Shown here piece after piece: positions 19,701-55,997 of a DNA stretch of 64,000 nt (within the stretch, counting starts at the first letter, position 1; every line of letters starts with the position of its first letter). The notes beneath the pieces are model-generated. The model was not told where the DNA came from. It ran no database searches and was given only the letters and a program-made list of their open reading frames with translations. The DNA lies in contig CAMMLS010000002.1 in NCBI GenBank assembly GCA_946497775.1, positions 50,653-114,652 of the forward strand. The letters are read 5' to 3'. Origin of the DNA: an uncultured Clostridium sp. Its GTDB lineage: Bacteria > Bacillota > Clostridia > TANB77 > CAG-508. A program made the position numbers and the translations under genes.

Positions 19701-21291
19701 ATGAAAAACATAAAAGGATATGTAAGTTTTGTACTTCATGCCCATCTTCCATTTGTGTATCATCCAGAAAGCGAAGATTACCTAGAAGAACAATGGCTTT
19801 TTGAAGCAATTTCTGAAACTTACATACCATTATTATTAAATTTTAAAAAATTAGAAGAGGAGCATGTTGATTTTAGAATAACAATGTCACTTACTCCTCC
19901 CCTTCTTTCTATGCTTGATAATGAGCTTTTACAAAAAAGATATATCAAGTATTTAAAAACACATATAGAACTATGTGAAAAAGAAGTTGTAAGAACAGCA
20001 TATGATGAAAGATTAAATAAGCTTTCACATTACTATTTAGAAAGATATACAAACGATTTACATGTATTTAAAGATGTATATAACTGTAATTTAATAAATG
20101 GGTTTAAACATTTTCAAGACATTGGTGTACTTGAAATAATAACATGTGGTGCAACACATGGATACTTTCCTATTTTATATGTTAATGAAAACACAATACG
20201 TGCTCAAATAGCTGTTGGTGTGCAAACATATGAGAAATATTTTGGAAGACGTCCTCGAGGAATTTGGCTTCCTGAATGTGGTTATGTACCACAAGCGGAC
20301 AAGTATTTACGTGAATTTGGAATAGAATACATATTAACAGAATCACATGGAATTCTATATGCAGACCCTACCCCACTATATGGCACATTTGCTCCAATAG
20401 TATCACCTGGCGGAATTGTTGCATTTGGAAGAGACATAGAATCTTCTAAACAAGTATGGAGTTCTATAATTGGATACCCTGGTGATTTTAATTACAGAGA
20501 ATATTATAGAGACATTGGCTTTGAAGCAGATTATGATTATATAAAGCCATATATAGCTTCAAATGGTGTTCGTGTACATACAGGTATAAAATATTATCGT
20601 ATAACTTCTAAAAGCGATTTTAAAGATTATTATAACCCAAGATGGGCAATGGATACAGCAGAAAGACAAGCTCGGTCATTTCTTAGATTCAAGAGTTGCA
20701 CAAATAAATTATCTATCTGAACATATGCATGTTCCCCCACTTGTTGTATGTCCATACGATGCTGAACTATACGGACACTGGTGGTATGAAGGACCTTATT
20801 GGTTATACATATTATTTAAAAAGATTTATTATGATGAATGTAATTTTAAACTAATAACCCCTGGCGACTATATAGACATGTTCCCAGAAATACAAGTAGC
20901 ATCTCCATGTATTTCAAGCTGGGGTAGAAATGGATATAGTGAAGTTTGGTTAAATGGAGAAAACGACTATGCTCACAAACACTTGCACGTAGCCGGAGAC
21001 AGAATGGTAGAACTTGCACACCTATTCCCTAACGAAAAAGATGAGCTAAAAAGAAAAGCACTTAACCAATGTGCCCGCGAATTGCTACTTGCTCAAAGCA
21101 GTGACTGGCTATTTATAATAACAAACGGAACCATGGTAGATTATGCAAAACGTAGAATAAAAGATCATATAGGTAGATTTACTAAACTATATGAACAAAT
21201 AAAAAATGATAAACTAGACGAAAATTATTTAAGCATGATAATGGAAAAAGATAAGATTTTTCCAGATATTGATTATATGATATACTATTAA
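19701..21291 (+). CDS. GH57-family 1,4-alpha-glucan branching enzyme, split by a -1 frameshift near 20675-20685 (poly-T)
   Basis: ORF1 carries HAHLPFVYHPE...; ORF2 starts MHVPPLVVCPYDAELYGHWWYEG. The alternative frame reads continuously as ...HFLDSRVAQINYLSEHMHVPP. Confidence 0.8.
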
Positions 21292-21336: not shown

Positions 21337-21831
21337 TTATAAAATATCATCTAATAGCATTTGTGAATCACCTATGTAGAAGTTTCTATTTCCATTTAAA
21401 TTTTTACATTTTATTATTCTAAACGTATCATACTTATATATTAGTGATCCTCCATCTTGATACATATCTTTATAAGCAATTCCATTGCTTACATCTTCTT
21501 CTACCTTTTCTATTATTTTATCAATTGTTATTCTATTACTTCTTAATGCATCCTCAAAAGAATATGTTTCTTCTCCAATAACTATACTTACATCTCCATT
21601 ATATGTATATATATCATAGTCATATTGTTCCATTTCACTTCTATCTATTATTTTATTTAATTGCTTATCTCCTCTTTTAGTAAATTTAATCTCAAAACTT
21701 ATATCTTTACTTGTGTTAACTATATTATTTTTCTCGTTATTTGTTGTATTATTATTTAAATAATACGCAAGACCTACTGTTATTACTAAAACTATACAAA
21801 TAAGTGCTATTATTAAATATTTTTTGTTCAA
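21337..21831 (-). CDS. secreted/membrane-anchored hypothetical protein (probable TTG start)
   Basis: 164 aa with a strong RBS (GGAAGGGGG) and a 0A-box promoter module upstream. Confidence 0.5.
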   Translation of the reverse strand: MNKKYLIIALICIVLVITVGLAYYLNNNTTNNEKNNIVNTSKDISFEIKFTKRGDKQLNKIIDRSEMEQYDYDIYTYNGDVSIVIGEETYSFEDALRSNRITIDKIIEKVEEDVSNGIAYKDMYQDGGSLIYKYDTFRIIKCKNLNGNRNFYIGDSQMLLDDIL

Positions 21832-21859
21832 ATTTTTCCCCCTTCCTTCTTAGTTTTTC

Positions 21860-21960
21860 TTTGACATTCTATTGTTATTTTACTTCATCTAATTATAATA
21901 TTCGACATGTGAAAGTTTTTTCCTTATTTAATTATCACCAAAATATTTCTATTTACTATG
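21860..21960 (-). promoter_or_regulatory. promoter module copy 1 with a perfect Spo0A 0A box (TGTCGAA on the coding strand, 21901-21907) followed by TATAAT/TAAAAT
   Basis: The coding-strand read is ...cacaTGTCGAAtattataattagatgaagtaaaat.... Confidence 0.55.
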
Positions 21961-22060
21961 TTAATACTACGTCGTGAACAAGTTCTAGGATTTTGTTTTT
22001 TATTTCATCAAAACTTAAAACTTTTTGCAATATATTTATATTTATTTTTATGTCAATTTA

Positions 22061-22384
22061 TTAAACAAATGCTGAAATTATATTATTAATTGCAGATACT
22101 ATAAGTATAATATAATCTTTTATTTGTTCTACTATTCCCTTTTCTTCTTTTTCTTTTGGCATTACATATACACTTGCATCTATTCCTTGTGATTCGGTAT
22201 TTTCATTTGAAGTATTTGACTCTCCTGGCTCCCTTATTTCTTCTACTCTTTCTTGGCTAGAAGTTAAGGCAATTTCTCCCCCTGCAAGTTTTTCTTCTCC
22301 TGGTTTGAAAAATACCATTGCCACGAGTACTACAGCTACAATTACTAAAACTACTGCTATCCCTATTAGTACTTTTTTCTTCAT
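22061..22384 (-). CDS. truncated paralog (N-terminal signal anchor only) of the 267/270-aa secreted-protein family
   Basis: MKKKVLIGIAVVLVIVAVVLVAMVFFKPGEEKLAGGEIALTSS closely matches MQKKILVGVVIVAIVVIGLTAMAVLKTGGEEKLVGGATAPVSS of 23680..24483. Confidence 0.5.
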   Translation of the reverse strand: MKKKVLIGIAVVLVIVAVVLVAMVFFKPGEEKLAGGEIALTSSQERVEEIREPGESNTSNENTESQGIDASVYVMPKEKEEKGIVEQIKDYIILIVSAINNIISAFV

Positions 22385-22500
22385 GTATTTTCCCCTCCTT
22401 ATTTTATTCTTCTTACGTCTTTTAACTTCATCTAGTTATATTATTCGACATAGGATAACTTTTCCCTTATTGTTTTAGCAATTTTAATTCTTTATAGCAT
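22385..22500 (-). promoter_or_regulatory. promoter module copy 2 with a 0A box at 22445-22451
   Basis: Coding strand reads TGTCGAAtaatataactagatgaagttaaaaga, nearly identical to copy 3. Confidence 0.55.
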
Positions 22501-22505
22501 GATAG

Positions 22506-23246
22506 TTATATAAATATACTTGTTTCTTCTAATTTATATGATATCATTTGTATAATGTTTTTTATACTTGGCTTTTTTAATTCTTGAAATTTAAAATATC
22601 CTTTTAATCTCTCTGATTCACAATTATAATACATATTTTCTGTTGCCCTTGCAATATTACATTTTACATTATGTACAGTCGTGTTATTAATCAAAGCAAT
22701 ATAGGGGTATATTTCTTCTTTTAAATTATTAATCTGTTCTATTTTATTTTCACTTATATATTTTATTGTTTCTATTAAATATAAAGTTCCTTTGTGTGAA
22801 ATATTATATCCTAAATATAATATTTCTTCTTTAATCTTTCTTTCTAAATTCTCATCTAAGCGAATTTGTTCTTTTTCATGAACTAATTCTAAAATTTTAT
22901 TTGTAATTTCTTCAAAAGTAAGTACTTTCTGTAATACGGCATATATCATTTCATTTTTTCTTAATTTGTTTATATATTCAACTTCTCCACTAATTACTAT
23001 ACAAGATTTTTTATACTTTTCTCTTTTTTCTTCATTAATCATGTCTAATACTTCAATTCCATTATATTTAGGAATTTTTAAATCCAATAAAAATACATCA
23101 ATATCTTCTCTATTATTTAATAGTTCAATGGCTTCTTTCCCATTTATAGTAATATTAGTAACTTTTATTTCATTACCTTTATTAATATAATCCATTAGCT
23201 TTTTAGCATAGAATATATTATCTTCTATAATTAATACATTAATCAT
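22506..23246 (-). CDS. response regulator with a Spo0A-type C-terminal DNA-binding domain (Spo0A paralog; short linker)
   Basis: REC domain (IIEDN...FLLDLKIP). The C-terminal domain aligns along its length to the Spo0A_C domain (HIKGYLYL/SHKGTLYL; LYPDIAKKFNTT/IYPYIALINNTT; KPTNSEFIAMVADKL/KPSIKNIIQMISYKL). Recognition helix is TVHNVKCNIARA versus TASRVERAIRHA. Confidence 0.75.
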   Translation of the reverse strand: MINVLIIEDNIFYAKKLMDYINKGNEIKVTNITINGKEAIELLNNREDIDVFLLDLKIPKYNGIEVLDMINEEKREKYKKSCIVISGEVEYINKLRKNEMIYAVLQKVLTFEEITNKILELVHEKEQIRLDENLERKIKEEILYLGYNISHKGTLYLIETIKYISENKIEQINNLKEEIYPYIALINNTTVHNVKCNIARATENMYYNCESERLKGYFKFQELKKPSIKNIIQMISYKLEETSIFI

Positions 23247-23337
23247 TTCTTCCCCTTCTAGTAAATATTAATATATAACTTCTTTATTTATTATACCATA
23301 TATGGTTTGTTTCTTCAATTATTATCGATTAATAGCA

Positions 23338-23372
23338 AAAAAGACAGCAATTAAAAATGCTGTCTTTTTGCT
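23338..23372. terminator. bidirectional rho-independent terminator
   Basis: AAAAAGACAGCA-loop-TGCTGTCTTTTT. Confidence 0.6.
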
Positions 23373-23462
23373 ATTAATCCATTTTCTAATTATCATTTTT
23401 TATATTCACTTTGCAATATTGAATCTAATGTTTCCAATTCACCATTTTCATTATTTTTCACC

Positions 23463-23693
23463 TTAATTGTATTCATTAGATTGCAATGATTTTGTATTTG
23501 TATTTAGTATAGCTTGATTTGTGTTTTCAATATTTGTTTCAATTTCCCTTAATCCATATTTCAAATAAGCAATTGAGTATACTCCATAATCTTCATTGTA
23601 TTTTAGATACATCAAATATGTTTTTCCATCTTGTATTTCTATATCATCAGACATTGTTTCCTTTATATATATTGTTTTTTTAATTTGAAGCAT
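23463..23693 (-). pseudogene. C-terminal fragment of a secreted-protein family paralog
   Basis: 76 aa ...GKTYLMYLKYNEDYGVYSIAYLKYGLREIETN... is homologous to the C-terminal parts of the 267- and 270-aa paralogs. It overlaps the stop of the upstream gene. Confidence 0.4.
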
Positions 23694-24483
23694 TTGACTC
23701 TTCCTCTGCTACTTTTTTTATTTGTGATAATATTGAGCTAAGTGTTGTAACACTACCAGTTCTATTATCTTTTACTTTTATTTTAGAATTATCTTTTAAA
23801 TTTAGTCCCTTAGATGTATCTATTTCTCTTAGTCCATATTTCATAAACTCTATCTCATATCTTTCAAAATCTGTGTTATATTGTAGTAACATATAATAAG
23901 TTTTTCCTTGTTCTATTAAAATATCATCAATATCAAGTTTTAATATATATTCGTCGTCTTGTGGTATCTCTTTTAAAAATTGAATTTCATTAGAGAATGT
24001 AGATGTCCCTTTTTTATACTCCGAAAAAGGAAGGTATCCTCCTGATTTTATAAATGGTATAGCTTCTTCGTCTATTTCTCCCTTTAATACTTTTTCTACT
24101 TTTATTGTACCCACAGTTTTTACAGATGAATAGTTTCCAGTAGTTGGATTATAATTTGTTCCACCTTCAATATTTTGAACTGTTCCTATAATTATAAAAT
24201 CTGTCGCATTTCCTATTTCACCAGTATCTGCTATGTCAAAAATATAACTTACTTCTATGGGTGCTCGATTTTGTATTTTTTGAATTTCTTCTAGTAATCC
24301 TTCTGGTAATGGGAATATTTTTTCTTGTGACCTTATTTTTGCGATTTGTTCTGGGCTAGAAACTGGTGCAGTTGCTCCTCCCACGAGTTTTTCTTCTCCT
24401 CCTGTTTTTAAAACTGCCATTGCTGTTAGTCCTATAACCACAATCGCTACAATTACTACTCCTACTAGTATTTTTTTCTGCAT
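23680..24483 (-). CDS. secreted/membrane-anchored protein, paralog family member B
   Basis: 267 aa with an N-terminal anchor and conserved IIGTVQNIEGGTNYNPTTGNY...YGLREI. Confidence 0.6.
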   Translation of the reverse strand: MQKKILVGVVIVAIVVIGLTAMAVLKTGGEEKLVGGATAPVSSPEQIAKIRSQEKIFPLPEGLLEEIQKIQNRAPIEVSYIFDIADTGEIGNATDFIIIGTVQNIEGGTNYNPTTGNYSSVKTVGTIKVEKVLKGEIDEEAIPFIKSGGYLPFSEYKKGTSTFSNEIQFLKEIPQDDEYILKLDIDDILIEQGKTYYMLLQYNTDFERYEIEFMKYGLREIDTSKGLNLKDNSKIKVKDNRTGSVTTLSSILSQIKKVAEEESNASN

Positions 24484-24600
24484 ATTTTTCCCTCCTTATT
24501 CTATTTTATGTCTTTTAACTTCATCTATTTATATTATTCGACAAGTAATATTTTTTCCCTTATTTTTAGTTGTTTCAATTCCCCAAAAATATTTCATTTT
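24484..24600 (-). promoter_or_regulatory. promoter module copy 3 with a 0A box at 24537-24543
   Basis: Coding strand reads TGTCGAAtaatataaatagatgaagttaaaaga. Confidence 0.55.
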
Positions 24601-24720
24601 GTCCAATGCCTCACATAATGAAAATGAACCCTCCTTATTAACACTTTTTTGTCTAATAATTTGGGTTCACTTCATAATATATCAGTGCTTTTCAGGATGT
24701 TAATTAATTTTCTTTTAATT

Positions 24721-25533
24721 TTAGTTAGTGTTTTTTATAACAGATTTAGGAATAATTGAATCTAACGTTTCATATTCTCCATTGGTATTGTTTTTTACTC
24801 TAATAGTTGTATATGCCTCATTGTTCAATATTTTTAAGTTTGCATTAAGTAAATTTTGATTTGTACTTGTTAAACTTTCTTCAACTTCTCTTAGCCCATA
24901 CTGTAAATATTCAATTGAATACCTATCATAATAATCCGAATATGCTATATACATTAAATAAGTTTTATTCTCTTCAATTTCAATATCACCAGCCATTGTT
25001 TCTTTTACATATTTATTTTCTTTATCTTCTTGTGATAAATTATTTAGCCCCATTTTTTCTAGATGCGCTTGTGGTTGTGATTTTATATATTCTCCTAATG
25101 GTACTACACCACCTAATCTAATAAATGATATTTTATCTTCATTTAGATTTCCTTTTATTACCTTATTTACTTTTATTGTCCCAACCGTTCTAGCCATTAC
25201 ATAATTTTCTGTTGTAGGATTGTAATTTGTCATTCCTTCAATACTTTCAACAGTCCCAATAATTATCCACTCGGCATCATTTGCGATAGTTGTATTATCT
25301 GACATATCTGTCAAAAAACTTCCACTACTTTCTAAATTCATATAAATCTGTTCTTCATCTAAATTTTCATTTATTGGTATTATTCTCTCCTTTTCACGTA
25401 TATTACTATTTTTAGCAACTTGTGGCTGTTCTGTGTTTTCTTTATTATTGTTAATAAGAATACATGTAATCGTAATCACAAATATTACTACAATAATTGA
25501 AAATATTATTAATAACTTTTTTTTCATAATCAT
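24721..25533 (-). CDS. secreted/membrane-anchored protein, paralog family member A
   Basis: 270 aa, IIIGTVESIEGMTNYNPTTENY...YGLREV. Starts 10 bp after the metalloprotease gene, so probably co-transcribed with it. Confidence 0.6.
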   Translation of the reverse strand: MIMKKKLLIIFSIIVVIFVITITCILINNNKENTEQPQVAKNSNIREKERIIPINENLDEEQIYMNLESSGSFLTDMSDNTTIANDAEWIIIGTVESIEGMTNYNPTTENYVMARTVGTIKVNKVIKGNLNEDKISFIRLGGVVPLGEYIKSQPQAHLEKMGLNNLSQEDKENKYVKETMAGDIEIEENKTYLMYIAYSDYYDRYSIEYLQYGLREVEESLTSTNQNLLNANLKILNNEAYTTIRVKNNTNGEYETLDSIIPKSVIKNTN

Positions 25534-25542
25534 CCACTCCTT

Positions 25543-26658
25543 TTAATATTTATATATTAATGCTTGTCTATCAATTGTTTGTGGAGTAGTAGGTACTCCT
25601 GACCTATTTATAGTTGGATACATAAGGCTACTTTTACTTATATGATGTTGTAAACCGAATGCATGTCCTATTTCATGCGCAATGGTTCCATATCTTTGAT
25701 CCGTATTCACCTGATTAGTAACCAAATATGTATCTCTATTTATAGAAACTTTTGCAAAATTCCAGCCAGTATATTCTGGATAAAGAATATTATCATGACT
25801 TGGTGTATGACATGTGGTTGCTGCTAGCCAATTATTTCCAAGTTCAGTAATGTTATCAAAATAGTCATTACCCACCTCATAAAAATCTACTGCTGTTGAA
25901 GCATTAGTTGAAGCTTGACTTAATATTATTGTTGGATTCCATCTAGATGCTCCAGTAGATATATAGCTAGAATATTGCGAAGCTGTTGAATCTACATAGT
26001 ATGTTTGATATCCGATTCCCTTAGTCATTCTATAAGGATATGCAGGGGTAGAATCTTCCAGTGCTTCAAAACTCCATAATTGATTGGCTGAACCTGTCCA
26101 TGTTGATATAAATACATTTCCATTCGAGGTAGAAGAAGTTCCTGATCCTGAACCATTTCCAGTACCATATACTGTCAGAGCTAAGTTCGGATTAGATTTT
26201 AATCGTATAGCAAATGAATCTCTACTTATTAATTGAATTATAAAGAATTGACAGTCATCATCTCCTGTTCCCCATATATCTACATTATTCCCTGATACTA
26301 TTGAACCGCTAGCACTTCCTCCTGTTCTTAGTACATCTAATACTCTGTTGCCTCCTTTACTACTACACATTGGATAAATTCTATATGCATCTTCATTTCC
26401 AGACCTATTATAATATACTACTCTAAATCTTTGTTCTTGACTTCCATCTTTAGTCCATTGTATAACATTCGTTCCATTTGCATCAGTTCCTAAATTTACA
26501 TTTAGATACTTGCCACTTGCATTGTTTTTTATATTATATATCATCCCATTTGTGATTAGTAATGTTTCAGCTGCAAAAATAGACCTATTGCCTAATAACA
26601 TTAATGTAAATACTAAAAAAGTTAAAATAAATAAAATTTTTGTTGTAATTTTTTTCAT
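25543..26658 (-). CDS. secreted ricin-B-lectin domain plus matrixin-like (metzincin) zinc metalloprotease
   Basis: Signal peptide, N-terminal beta-trefoil-like region (QxW-like repeats), HEIGHAFGLQHH motif and an SLMYP Met-turn. Confidence 0.75.
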   Translation of the reverse strand: MKKITTKILFILTFLVFTLMLLGNRSIFAAETLLITNGMIYNIKNNASGKYLNVNLGTDANGTNVIQWTKDGSQEQRFRVVYYNRSGNEDAYRIYPMCSSKGGNRVLDVLRTGGSASGSIVSGNNVDIWGTGDDDCQFFIIQLISRDSFAIRLKSNPNLALTVYGTGNGSGSGTSSTSNGNVFISTWTGSANQLWSFEALEDSTPAYPYRMTKGIGYQTYYVDSTASQYSSYISTGASRWNPTIILSQASTNASTAVDFYEVGNDYFDNITELGNNWLAATTCHTPSHDNILYPEYTGWNFAKVSINRDTYLVTNQVNTDQRYGTIAHEIGHAFGLQHHISKSSLMYPTINRSGVPTTPQTIDRQALIYKY

Positions 26659-26859
26659 ATTTACCTCCTTTTTACCATACCTTTGATTTCCAATTACATT
26701 GATTGTATGGCTTTAAAAAAATAATGTTTTATAATATAAATATCCTCCTTTCCAATTTATTTTATGTCTCTCCCTATTAATCCTGCATAGATTATATATC
26801 AAAAATACTTTTTTTCTCAAAAAGATACAAAAAGATACTTTTTGTATGATGTATCTATT

Positions 26860-26960
26860 TCTCTTAACCCATATATTTATATTGTTCGACAAAAAATATT
26901 TTTTCCATTATTTTTAATTGTTTCAATTTTGCGGACATATTTCATTTTGATTTGTGTTTG
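26860..26960 (-). promoter_or_regulatory. promoter module copy 4 with a 0A box at 26885-26891 (about 230 bp upstream of the metalloprotease gene)
   Basis: Coding strand reads tTGTCGAAcaatataaatatatggg. The upstream part of the module is conserved with copies 1-3. Confidence 0.45.
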
Positions 26961-54164: not shown

Positions 54165-55997
54165 CTATTTATTTTTCTTTGTATATTCTATTTCATATTT
54201 ATTTAATAACTCTTCAAATAATTCTATTGTAATCTTTCCCTGTTTTAAGGCTTCTTCTGCTGTTATCATATCTCCGTTTTTAAAATATAATTGCACATAT
54301 TTAGTTTTTTGATTTGGATAGTAATATTCATAATTTTCATCTTCATAAAATTTATATTCTCCATCTGCGATTCTGGATTTATCGAACTCTTCTAGCATGG
54401 TATAGTCTATTAATCTTGGTCCATCTGTTTCTTCTCTTTTTTCTAGTATATCGCTATTGTCTACTTTTAGAGCAAAATATGGATTTTCTGAATTTGCTTC
54501 TTGCATAAATAATATAAATGTATCTTGAAAAAAGCAATATCTTGGCTCGTTTGAAAATTCCAAATATTCAGTTACCATTGTGGATTTGCTAGATAGGTTG
54601 CAACCTTTTTCATTTAATGAAAAATTTACATTTTGTATTACTTCATAAATATAAAGTCCATTTGAATTTTTTATTTCTTTGCCATATAGTTCATTATAGC
54701 TAATCATTCCATTTATTTTTATGTATGGAACTCTTAACTCATCTTTTTCTGAAAAATTGGTATCTTCTTTATATGTATTTGATTTGTTTTTTATGTCTTG
54801 ATAATATTCGTCAAATGATTTTTTGTCATCTGTTCTATAAAGTATTATTTCGTCACCTTCTTTGGTGTTTAGTTTTATTGCAAAATCATTACTAAGCCAA
54901 GGGGTGTCTTGCATTCTATTATAGAAAAGTATTTCCACATTTTTATTCATCTTTTCTGGGCTAGCATTATTTATTCCAAAATATTTAATAAATTCGTCTC
55001 CATCTCCAAATTTCCATGCATAATCATCACTAAAATTATCAAATGATTCTAAGAAATGTAGTTCTTTATTTAGTGTAGCATCTATTTTGTATCCATTTGT
55101 AAGTGTCCTTTCTACATTTATATTATAATCTTCTGAGTCTAGCATTTCTTTTGTAAAGGTGCTTGAATTTAAGTCGTTTGCAATTTGTAAATTTTCGCCT
55201 CCTAATTCTATTTTATCTTTTCCTAGTTTTTCTTCTAAATCTTTCCATGCTAAATCTAATGTGCCAACCCATAAATTATTTATGGTGTTTTCATCTAGTG
55301 TGCTTTGATATGTCGGATTCATTGTTAAGGTGCTGAATTGTTTATAAATTTGTGTTACTGCATAAACTATTCCGCTTAAAGCAACAGTTGCAACTATTAG
55401 AATAATTACTACTTTTGATACTTTATTCATTCTATCAAATCCTTTCTTTAGCAGGATTTTTCTTAATTGCTTTTTCCCTCTATGTACAAGTGTTTTTGTA
55501 TTTTGGAGAGTTTGTCCTAATATTTTAGATGTTTCTTCATATGATAGTCCTTCAATATTTACTAAGTATATAGCATTTTTATATTTATCATCTAATTCTT
55601 CTATTGCAATTAGTAACTCTTTTTTAGTTTCTTCTCTTGTTATAATTTCTAGAATATCCTCGTCAGTTCTTTCATTGTCGTTTAAAATGTATTGTTCATT
55701 AATCTCGTTTCTTCTTTTTTCTACATTTATTTCATTGTAAGCTTTGCTTTTTGCAACTAGATATATGTAATATTTAAAAGAACTATTTTCACGTATTTTA
55801 TTCTTCATAATATATATAAAAGTTTCTTGTGTTAAGTCTTCTGCTTTTTCATAGTCTTTTACTATGTTAAAAATAAAATATTTAATTCTATTTTTATATT
55901 TGTTATAAAGATATTCAAAGGCTTGTTTTTCTCCGTTTAAATAATCATTATATAATTTTTTATCTAAATCTCTCTCCATTTTTCTACCTGCTTTCAT
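54165..55997 (-). CDS. ECF sigma factor fused in one polypeptide to a TM helix and a ~400-aa extracytoplasmic domain
   Basis: Sigma region 2 (…AEDLTQETFIYIMKN) and region 4 (LSYEETSKILGQTLQNTKTLVHRGKKQLRK), then a VVIILIVATVALSGIVYAV TM helix, then a large C-terminal domain. Confidence 0.65.
   Translation of the reverse strand: MKAGRKMERDLDKKLYNDYLNGEKQAFEYLYNKYKNRIKYFIFNIVKDYEKAEDLTQETFIYIMKNKIRENSSFKYYIYLVAKSKAYNEINVEKRRNEINEQYILNDNERTDEDILEIITREETKKELLIAIEELDDKYKNAIYLVNIEGLSYEETSKILGQTLQNTKTLVHRGKKQLRKILLKKGFDRMNKVSKVVIILIVATVALSGIVYAVTQIYKQFSTLTMNPTYQSTLDENTINNLWVGTLDLAWKDLEEKLGKDKIELGGENLQIANDLNSSTFTKEMLDSEDYNINVERTLTNGYKIDATLNKELHFLESFDNFSDDYAWKFGDGDEFIKYFGINNASPEKMNKNVEILFYNRMQDTPWLSNDFAIKLNTKEGDEIILYRTDDKKSFDEYYQDIKNKSNTYKEDTNFSEKDELRVPYIKINGMISYNELYGKEIKNSNGLYIYEVIQNVNFSLNEKGCNLSSKSTMVTEYLEFSNEPRYCFFQDTFILFMQEANSENPYFALKVDNSDILEKREETDGPRLIDYTMLEEFDKSRIADGEYKFYEDENYEYYYPNQKTKYVQLYFKNGDMITAEEALKQGKITIELFEELLNKYEIEYTKKNK

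Follow-up and report, generated by a model that had tools for sequence, protein, structure and literature searches.

The locus analysed here is an island of seven minus-strand open reading frames (ORFs) at 21337-26960 of a 64-kb stretch of DNA (the window) from the chromosome of an uncultured Clostridia bacterium. It combines exact copies of TGTCGAA, the 0A box of the sporulation regulator Spo0A, with a gene encoding a Spo0A-like response regulator. Spo0A is known from Bacillus subtilis and Clostridioides difficile (1LQ1, 1FC3; TIGR02875) as an orphan protein carrying a receiver and a Spo0A_C domain end to end. In the Spo0A-DNA complex that Zhao et al. are said to have described in 2002, the E, R and R residues of the recognition helix reportedly make base contacts, and neighbouring 0A boxes are reportedly occupied by the protein as a tandem dimer. 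Typical 0A operators comprise several boxes, often in tandem with a 10-bp period, located at or upstream of the -35 element, or past +1. The genome of C. difficile 630 contains 102 perfect 0A boxes (PMC3485338). Sporulation-pathway surveys identify Spo0A by its Spo0A_C domain, which they regard as unique to it (PMC6136694). Our literature search found no described Spo0A paralog, which is not proof that none exists.

The second system of interest is that of sigma-H (Spo0H), the transition-phase sigma factor, whose motif consists of AGGA and GAAT with spacers of 17-18 nt (PMC12456013). In C. difficile a set of SigH promoters has been defined by mapping of transcription start sites and transcriptomics of a sigH mutant (PMC7438776, Table 3). 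It includes those of spo0A (AGGAATATAATTTTGGAGTGTCGAATAT), lplA (AGGAGTTTTTATATTATTGTCGAATTATAA), ssuA (…AGTGTCGAAGAT) and cwp27 (AAAGGAAAATATTCTTTTATGTAGAATTATAAT), and sigA2 is also SigH-dependent (PMC7438776). The -10 element is literally TGTCGAA in three of these promoters, those of spo0A, lplA and ssuA (PMC7438776), and the perfect 0A boxes of the same three genes are bound in vitro by the Spo0A DNA-binding domain (PMC3485338). By analogy with these cases, a sigma-H -10 element of the TGTCGAA type can double as a Spo0A site, and the two readings of such a sequence overlap in known biology.

For the island we propose, with a confidence slightly better than even, a two-layer model drawn from sequence comparison. 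In the first layer, the transcription units of three genes, p164, p107 and p267, would be driven by copies of one sigma-H-type promoter cassette, in which the 'perfect 0A box' would form the upstream edge and the core of the -10 element (tGTCGAAT). In the second, the orphan regulator, a paralog of Spo0A with the same receiver and Spo0A_C domains and a rewritten recognition helix, would bind a T-rich direct repeat, (G/T)TATCTTTTT x2, as a phosphorylation-dependent tandem dimer. This repeat would act where it abuts the -35 element of sigma-A promoters, which in the window is the case for the promoter of the operon encoding a protease and the membrane protein p270. An earlier note on this DNA had described the island as a self-contained regulatory module in which the regulator acts through the 0A boxes. 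Its observations were largely right and its interpretation half right.

The TGTCGAA boxes and the repeated cassette

Exact TGTCGAA heptamers precede four minus-strand units, as the earlier note had described. They occupy positions 21901-21907, 22444-22450 (placed one nucleotide further on, at 22445, in that note), 24537-24543 and 26885-26891, and each stands 3 nt before a TATAAT-like hexamer (TATAAT, TATAAC, TATAAA and TATAAA, respectively). By chance, 0.16 copies would be expected in the 5.6-kb block (Poisson P = 2.4e-5, assuming independent boxes), while the remainder of the window contains a single box, at 47806 (+), against 1.55 expected. In non-coding DNA the density is ~3.6 per kb in the island (~1.1 kb) versus 0.32 per kb in 24 related loci. 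The enrichment of TGTCGAA in the island is real. In the DNA of the lineage, as represented by the related loci, the heptamer is 3.2-fold above expectation, and its density in non-coding DNA is about five times that in coding sequence. A gradient towards the regulators of the family was considered and rejected: across distance bins the densities are 0.45, 0.32, 0.37 and 0.25 per kb of non-coding DNA, with tiny counts, and the 3.2-fold excess reflects non-coding versus coding DNA rather than proximity. The box at 47806 is accompanied by a TGTCGTA 30 nt upstream (47776-47812); the pair is situated in the 5' region of a gene with an LtaS-type sulfatase domain (45790-47751 (-)) and is oriented opposite to that gene. 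This box is a possible genuine Spo0A site.

The four boxes of the island are not independent. All lie within one repeated block of ~55-90 nt, with the consensus AATAAGG(G/A)AAAA-N9/10-TGTCGAATAWTATAAnTAGATGAAGTTAAAAGAC, and the copies at p267 and at the protease operon share ~40 nt more upstream. The copy called P164 (21874..21925 (-)) reads AAGGAAAA-N10-TGTCGAATATTATAAT followed by a conserved leader, P107 (22417..22468 (-)) reads AAGGGAAAA-N9-TGTCGAATAATATAAC followed by the leader TAGATGAAGTTAAAAGAC, and P267 (24510..24561 (-)) reads AAGGGAAAA-N9-TGTCGAATAATATAAA, again with the conserved leader. The fourth copy (26861..26909 (-); AATGGAAAA...TGTCGAACAATATAAA) is degenerate, with both sigma-H core elements mutated (ATGG, GAAC), and is probably a decayed promoter. 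Among the related loci the cassette is confined to the window and to its 79 % relative L084, which contains three copies (a to c).

An AGGN tetramer occurs exactly 17 nt before GAAT in 7/7 copies (four in the window and three in L084). The -35 variants are AGGAAAA (P164 and L084b), AGGGAAA (P107 and P267), AGGTAAA (L084a and L084c) and ATGGAAA (the fourth copy). The -10 element is TGTCGAAT in 5/5 intact copies, that is, GAAT preceded by (T)GT(A/C). Identity among these five reaches 96 % over the 15-nt TGTCGAAnAnTATAA segment and amounts to 62 % in the spacer, 69 % in the -35 block and 82 % in the leader. The cassette is read as a promoter because its -35 and -10 elements are conserved and its spacer is variable. 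The leader TAGATGAAGTTAAAAGAC extends ~20 nt past the -10 element (21874-21890, 22417-22435 and 24510-24528 (-)). A search of Rfam with it returned nothing near any gathering score, and its conservation could correspond to an operator, to an RNA-level signal or to mere recent duplication.

In a sigma-70 scan the cassettes yielded no acceptable pair of sigma-A -35 and -10 elements, their TATAAT-like hexamers lacking a usable -35 element. P164, P107 and P267 appear best explained as sigma-H-type promoters with TGTCGAA as their -10 elements. They share with the C. difficile promoters of spo0A, lplA, ssuA, cwp27 and sigA2 the -35 element AGGA(A/T)3, the distance of 17-18 nt and the -10 element (T)GT(A/C)GAAT, and the cwp27 promoter is nearly superimposable on P164. 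However P107 and P267 carry AGGG instead of AGGA, and the window cassette includes the leader and is multiplied in one island. A two-block weight matrix built from 29 C. difficile SigH promoters (spacers of 17 nt, n=13, and 18 nt, n=15) and used as a consistency check ranks P164 first in the window, with a score of 20.2 (training median 20.6), and P267 and P107 fourth and fifth, with 17.7; all three fall in the training range.

The same architecture is found outside the island. Scanning of JGI metagenome contigs with AGGNAAA-N10-TGTCGAAYAWTATAA gave 18 loci; some are evident chance matches in high-GC contigs, and the low-GC matches are located immediately before genes. In three distinct low-GC contigs (L092, L095/L096 and L097) AGGAAAA-N10-TGTCGAATAATATAA stands directly before dnaG and then sigA, with identical boxes and spacers that differ between contigs. 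These copies have the features of a sigma-H-type promoter with a perfect '0A box' as its -10 element. A sigma-H promoter in the sigA operon of B. subtilis (P3) is classical. In the window, the cassette would have been copied together with the paralogous genes, leaving the decayed fourth copy ahead of the protease operon. Expression of the island would then be induced or modulated when cells enter stationary phase or sporulation. Genuine Spo0A~P may bind the cassette boxes too, as in vitro for the like promoters of C. difficile.

The boxes might instead be genuine Spo0A~P operators on weak sigma-A promoters, most plausibly repressor sites on the spacer or the -10 element, with no part for sigma-H. 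The heptamer is an exact match to the consensus, it is biased towards non-coding DNA and in excess of expectation in this lineage, and the C. difficile Spo0A DNA-binding domain binds such boxes (PMC3485338). Tandem 0A boxes with 10-bp spacing are moreover present in the distant family loci L006 (~6900(-)), L007 (7311(+)) and L013 (~13010(-)), as TGTCGAAaggTGTCGAc, TGTCGAAggaGTCGAA and TGTCGAAatgTGTCGg, which points to a canonical Spo0A in the lineage; L011 (~12989(-)) contains a run of TTGTCAT-like repeats. However this explanation accounts neither for the invariant AGG exactly 17 nt before GAAT nor for the T that follows TGTCGAA, there is no sigma-A -35 at the cassettes, and the full architecture recurs before the dnaG-sigA operons elsewhere. 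In contrast to typical 0A operators, each cassette contains a single box, which overlaps the -10 element or the spacer. We consider it unlikely that Spo0A~P alone explains the boxes, and its binding is compatible with sigma-H-type promoters rather than a replacement for them. A canonical Spo0A/sigma-H system is probably encoded elsewhere in the genome, because sporulation genes are present in the lineage (ytxC in the window; yabP and yqfD in L090, a relative with 61 % regulator identity), because TGTCGAA is over-represented and biased towards non-coding DNA, and because tandem pairs occur.

The Spo0A-like regulator and its candidate operator

The regulator (22506..23246 (-); 246 aa) is an orphan response regulator composed of a receiver (Response_reg, 45.6 bits) and a divergent Spo0A_C domain (37.4 bits, cutoff 25). 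The latter aligns over profile positions 1-104 of 104, in agreement with the full-length alignment claimed previously. Its score against the Spo0A equivalog model TIGR02875 of NCBIfam is 71.5 bits, against a cutoff of 200, though the alignment covers positions 3-256 of 262. It is ~25 % identical to B. subtilis Spo0A (the comparison sequence being 100 % identical to 1LQ1). In the recognition helix, SRVERAIRHAIE of Spo0A (1LQ1) aligns with HNVKCNIARATE, so that the E-R-x-x-R positions become K-C-x-x-A; the lysine (K195) that replaces the glutamate is invariant in the family. D9, D55 and K107, the phospho-acceptor residues, show no variation among 22 family members. A domain scan of the neighbourhood of the locus identified no kinase gene near the regulator.

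The family includes 56 clusters (37-94 % identity), all from uncultured Clostridia. Two loci per metagenome-assembled genome (MAG) are observed in two cases (L009 with L014; L017 with L018), two regulator copies lie within 5 kb in L010 and in L013, and extra copies occur in L111 and L115. Since the equivalog score is below cutoff, the helix is substituted and several copies exist per MAG or locus, the protein is, as judged by these comparisons, a member of a diverged family of Spo0A paralogs and not the bona fide Spo0A. It resembles Spo0A in its domain order, in its orphan status, in the retained phospho-acceptor residues and in a predicted target that is a head-to-tail repeat with a 10-bp period. 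It differs in the predicted operator, (G/T)TATCTTTTT instead of TGTCGAA, and in its neighbours, which are variable genes for secreted proteins and ECF-type (extracytoplasmic function) sigma factors and not spoIVB-recN. Short stand-alone proteins that resemble, or are annotated by Pfam as, Spo0A_C alone, with no receiver, are encoded by a 143-aa ORF in L097 (~3.3 kb past the promoter, after sigA), in L111 (5291-5647) and in L115 (276-1022), and point to further diversification of the fold.

The candidate target of the regulator, the tandem direct repeat GTATCTTTTT GTATCTTTTT, was first noticed in intergenic regions of closer relatives, and ~25 family loci were examined overall. It consists of two (G/T)TATCTTTTT units with a 10-bp period, positions 2-10 being at least 87 % conserved. 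Allowing at most two mismatches, 20 matches were found in 20 loci (305 kb) versus ~1.5 in shuffled sequences. Fourteen of these are no more than 150 nt away from a regulator gene (2.2 % of the sequence falls in this zone), and most of the others lie inside the islands. Copies near the regulator are located just past its stop codon or, divergently oriented, ~55 nt upstream of its start. De novo enrichment of 8-mers in the regulator flanks recovered pieces of the same motif (best P ~4e-6 before multiple-test correction), and among six family loci fetched later the motif or a close variant (TTTAC or TGAAC units) is present in the gene cluster of the regulator in four (L110, L111, L113 and L115). 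The genes downstream of the repeat nearly all encode signal-peptide proteins (proteases, PepSY-like, small secreted and 740-790-aa exported proteins); in L005 and L007 the repeat precedes the regulator gene.

The window contains a single copy of the repeat, GTATCTTTTT GTATCTTTTT (26819..26838 (-)), a predicted operator that abuts the -35 element of the sigma-A-type promoter of the protease-p270 operon (TTGAGA-18-TATAAT, 26791..26820 (-)). This promoter is the top sigma-70 match of the island (11/12) and lies 41 nt downstream of the fourth TGTCGAA box. That box belongs to the degenerate fourth cassette copy and not to the best promoter of the operon. The regulator gene is preceded by a sigma-A-type promoter of its own (TTGAAG-17-TG-TATAAT, 23290..23318 (-)), which contains neither TGTCGAA nor the tandem repeat, and the claim that every promoter of the island carries a 0A box does not hold.

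Activation by response regulators from tandem direct repeats abutting the -35 element is well known from class II promoters of the PhoB/OmpR type and from Spo0A at spoIIG. The sites described here share with them at least two direct repeats with a 10-bp period, ending 22-23 nt before a TATAAT-like -10 element in 9/19 sites (roughly -35 to -54). They differ from OmpR/PhoB sites in the DNA-binding fold concerned and in a second spacing class of 17-18 nt, and they are predicted from sequence. The (G/T)TATCTTTTT tandem repeat is most likely the operator of the regulator, which would activate from a class-II-like position, and in the window it most likely controls the protease/p270 operon alone.

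The explanation first put forward was that the Spo0A-like paralog binds the four TGTCGAA boxes as a private mini-regulon, at sigma-A promoters whose -10 elements would be the TATAAT-like hexamers. The boxes are indeed strongly enriched and co-located with the regulator, whose Spo0A_C fold is full length, and in L090 TGTCGAA stands upstream of both the regulator gene and a p270-family gene. However the residues at the E-R-x-x-R positions are replaced, TGTCGAA occurs within the 200-nt flanks of 3/19 family regulators with no clear distance gradient, and the cassette is limited to one clade. Moreover the promoter concerned has no -35 element, and the box occupies its spacer (about -16 to -22), which is not where an activator would bind. 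Finally, another motif, the tandem repeat, tracks the regulator, and the boxes fit sigma-H. We regard it as improbable that TGTCGAA is the operator of this protein.

Several observations nevertheless weigh against one or other layer of the proposed model. For the cassette, TGTC and the ~20-nt leader (82 %) are conserved beyond the need of a sigma-H -10 element, an excess to which recent duplication or an additional binding factor may contribute. The SigH matrix is weak: the maxima of shuffled windows are similar (median 17.8, maximum 20.5), and it was rejected as a significance test. In L090, the TGTCGAA before the regulator gene has no AGGA partner and lies ~9 nt upstream of a TTGCAA-17-TATGAT promoter, so that it looks like a true activator-type 0A box. 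Both sigH and a canonical spo0A are absent from the 64-kb window, to which the search was confined; in tblastn, B. subtilis Spo0A matched only the paralog and an unrelated OmpR-type receiver there. For the repeat, the assignment as operator rests on conserved proximity, the distance to the -10 element is bimodal with a second group at 17-18 nt, and several family members (L009, L012 and L112) have no detectable copy. A covariation between residue and base, suggested by the first 13 loci (Arg or Lys at the position of window R200 with G-initial repeats, Asn with TTATC), failed in two of three new cases (P0021, Asn with GTATC; P0046, Lys with TTTAC) and was rejected.

Two further observations concern these relatives. 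The TGTCGAA of L090 belongs to a duplicated segment of ~80 nt (9886 and 13055 (+)), made up of a terminator hairpin, TGTCGAA and TTGCAA-17-TATGAT, one copy of which stands before the regulator gene and the other before a p270-family gene. A search for alternative tandem repeats beside regulators lacking the motif (L009, L012 and L014-L016) gave weak hints alone, such as GAAACTTTTTT in L014 and L016.

Gene content and turnover of the island

The window (GC 24-31 %) otherwise contains ordinary chromosomal genes (PolC, glycogen genes, SecDF, P-type ATPases, ytxC). The island is flanked by a GH57/branching-enzyme gene pair and by ytxC, and several metagenome contigs carry identical copies of it. 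It is best explained as a fast-evolving chromosomal block for secreted and membrane-anchored proteins in an uncultured, low-GC lineage of gut Clostridia. In the flanking pair, the catalytic GH57 part (339 aa, 19701-20720 (+)) and the C-terminal domain of the branching enzyme (188 aa, 20725-21291 (+)) are separate ORFs with a gap of 4 nt; L001 and L084 show the same division, which indicates a conserved state and no sequencing frameshift.

Besides the regulator, the island includes p164 (21337..21831 (-); 164 aa), which starts with a hydrophobic anchor or signal and matches no Pfam or NCBIfam family above cutoff. Homologs with 45-56 % identity are present in L086, L088 and L090, showing that the family is conserved in the islands of relatives. 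In these three loci a tandem-repeat promoter heads the unit in which the p164 homolog is a downstream gene, and we infer that the window p164 has gained the sigma-H-type cassette in its place. The p267 gene (23680..24483 (-)) encodes a membrane-anchored paralog of p270 (41 % identity). The 107-aa ORF p107 (22061..22384 (-)) is, as had been proposed, a truncated paralog of the 267/270-aa family: a 310-aa L084 homolog aligns at its two ends with p107 residues 1-51 and 55-107, indicating an internal deletion. The p76 ORF (23463..23693 (-)) is the C-terminal remnant of a further p270-type paralog, corresponding to p270 residues 171-241; it is 76 % identical to L084 7525-7740, where the counterpart gene is intact (265 aa). 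Ahead of the regulator promoter, a hairpin with a trailing T-run (23337..23369 (-)) was read from the sequence and not called by a simple terminator scan; it is likely the terminator of the unit upstream of the regulator. The interval from the p270 stop codon to the P267 cassette contains another inverted repeat, GTGAACCC...GGGTTCAT (loop of ~32 nt; 24600-24680 (-)); it is conserved in L084 (5400-5440) and is unlike a canonical terminator.

Duplication, deletion and decay are thus under way in the island, as p107, p76 and the fourth cassette copy illustrate, and all copies of the cassette lie in paralogous segments. These facts would also be expected if the boxes had no function and were a chance heptamer carried along by duplication of promoter and gene together. 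However the box segment is 96 % identical where the adjacent spacer is 62 % identical, and the box is kept in copies of L084 that otherwise differ in their flanks (AGGT...TGTCGAAT). Such conservation amid diverged spacers and flanks indicates purifying selection on the box, and makes absence of function very improbable.

Among relatives the gene order, the copy number and the promoters of the island vary, while the regulator, the p270 family and the p164 family remain linked down to 61 % regulator identity (L090). More distant loci of the regulator family likewise adjoin genes for signal-peptide proteins, proteases and ricin-lectin proteins. The idea of a self-contained module wired to secreted effectors thus survives as a co-conserved association of regulator and secreted proteins, whereas the part that made it a 0A-box mini-regulon of the paralog is not supported.

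ECF-type sigma genes directly adjoin the family regulators in L110, L111, L113, L114 and L115, often with long C-terminal, anti-sigma-like or DUF4179 extensions; in L113 a sigma gene, a 275-aa gene and the regulator form one apparent operon. The window encodes a 610-aa sigma-like protein (54165-55997 (-)) located 31 kb from the regulator, next to LiaF-like and DUF4097 genes and an OmpR-type two-component system; its sigma domain is 64 % identical to that of the regulator-adjacent protein of L115. A reading of the cassette by such an ECF-like sigma with a long C-terminal extension, or by another alternative sigma factor, is nonetheless the least probable of the explanations considered, and an ECF-type reading was rejected on spacing: the GGAAA-like and GTC-like words of the cassette are ~11-12 nt apart, where typical ECF promoters have 16-17 nt between elements, and the cassette fits sigma-H in words and spacing.

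The operon headed by the tandem-repeat promoter encodes a secreted metzincin-type metalloprotease with a ricin-B-lectin domain (25543..26658 (-); 371 aa), followed by p270 (24721..25533 (-)). The protease matches RicinB_lectin_2 (61 bits) and Peptidase_M10 (31.3 bits, cutoff 24), the latter over profile positions 111-139 alone. Its HEIGHAFGLQH motif at residue 328, followed by a SLMYP Met-turn, matches the HExxHxxGxxH zinc site. In its structure model (pLDDT 85.3), p270 consists of an N-terminal membrane helix followed by a beta-barrel domain with a predicted fold of the NTR/TIMP-like (OB) type. A barrel of the same type behind a membrane anchor is predicted for its paralog p267. Their family is small (39 clusters) and unannotated. 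Comparison with NTR modules (TIMP-1, -2 and -3, agrin NtA, C345C) gave Foldseek E-values of 1.5e-3 or worse, TM ~0.5 and 9-15 % identity. The N-terminal Cys1 by which TIMPs chelate the catalytic zinc is absent from p270, as are the disulfides, and for this reason membership of the TIMP family is not claimed; the single cysteine lies inside the membrane helix. Unlike TIMP, p270 is membrane-anchored and its domain starts near residue 60 instead of at the mature N-terminus. Since it is co-operonic with a matrixin-like metzincin, p270 is possibly an inhibitor or immunity partner of this protease. If so, the pair would be a bacterial analogue of the MMP/TIMP (matrix metalloproteinase and its inhibitor) arrangement in a gut commensal.

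The comparisons bear first on the reading of 0A boxes. Because the 0A box shares sequence with the sigma-H -10 element, searching genomes for 0A boxes will pick up Spo0A sites and sigma-H promoters alike, and a perfect TGTCGAA in a low-GC Firmicute should not be taken for a Spo0A site unless the presence of AGGA 17-18 nt upstream has been checked. For the gut Clostridia as a group we put forward, tentatively and with somewhat less than even confidence, that multi-copy orphan regulators derived from Spo0A, with a helix re-targeted to a T-rich 10-bp tandem repeat, control small, fast-turnover islands that encode exported proteins, among them secreted proteases and TIMP-like membrane proteins, frequently alongside ECF-type sigma/anti-sigma modules. 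The islands would also be tied to the ancestral sigma-H/Spo0A transition-phase circuit via TGTCGAAT-type promoters, and the Spo0A_C domain would not be exclusive to Spo0A. If this is correct, a multi-copy receiver-Spo0A_C family with a different operator would lead to mis-annotation of Spo0A in MAGs. It would also offer a tractable case in which a master developmental regulator was duplicated, changed its specificity and was repurposed for local control of the secretome.

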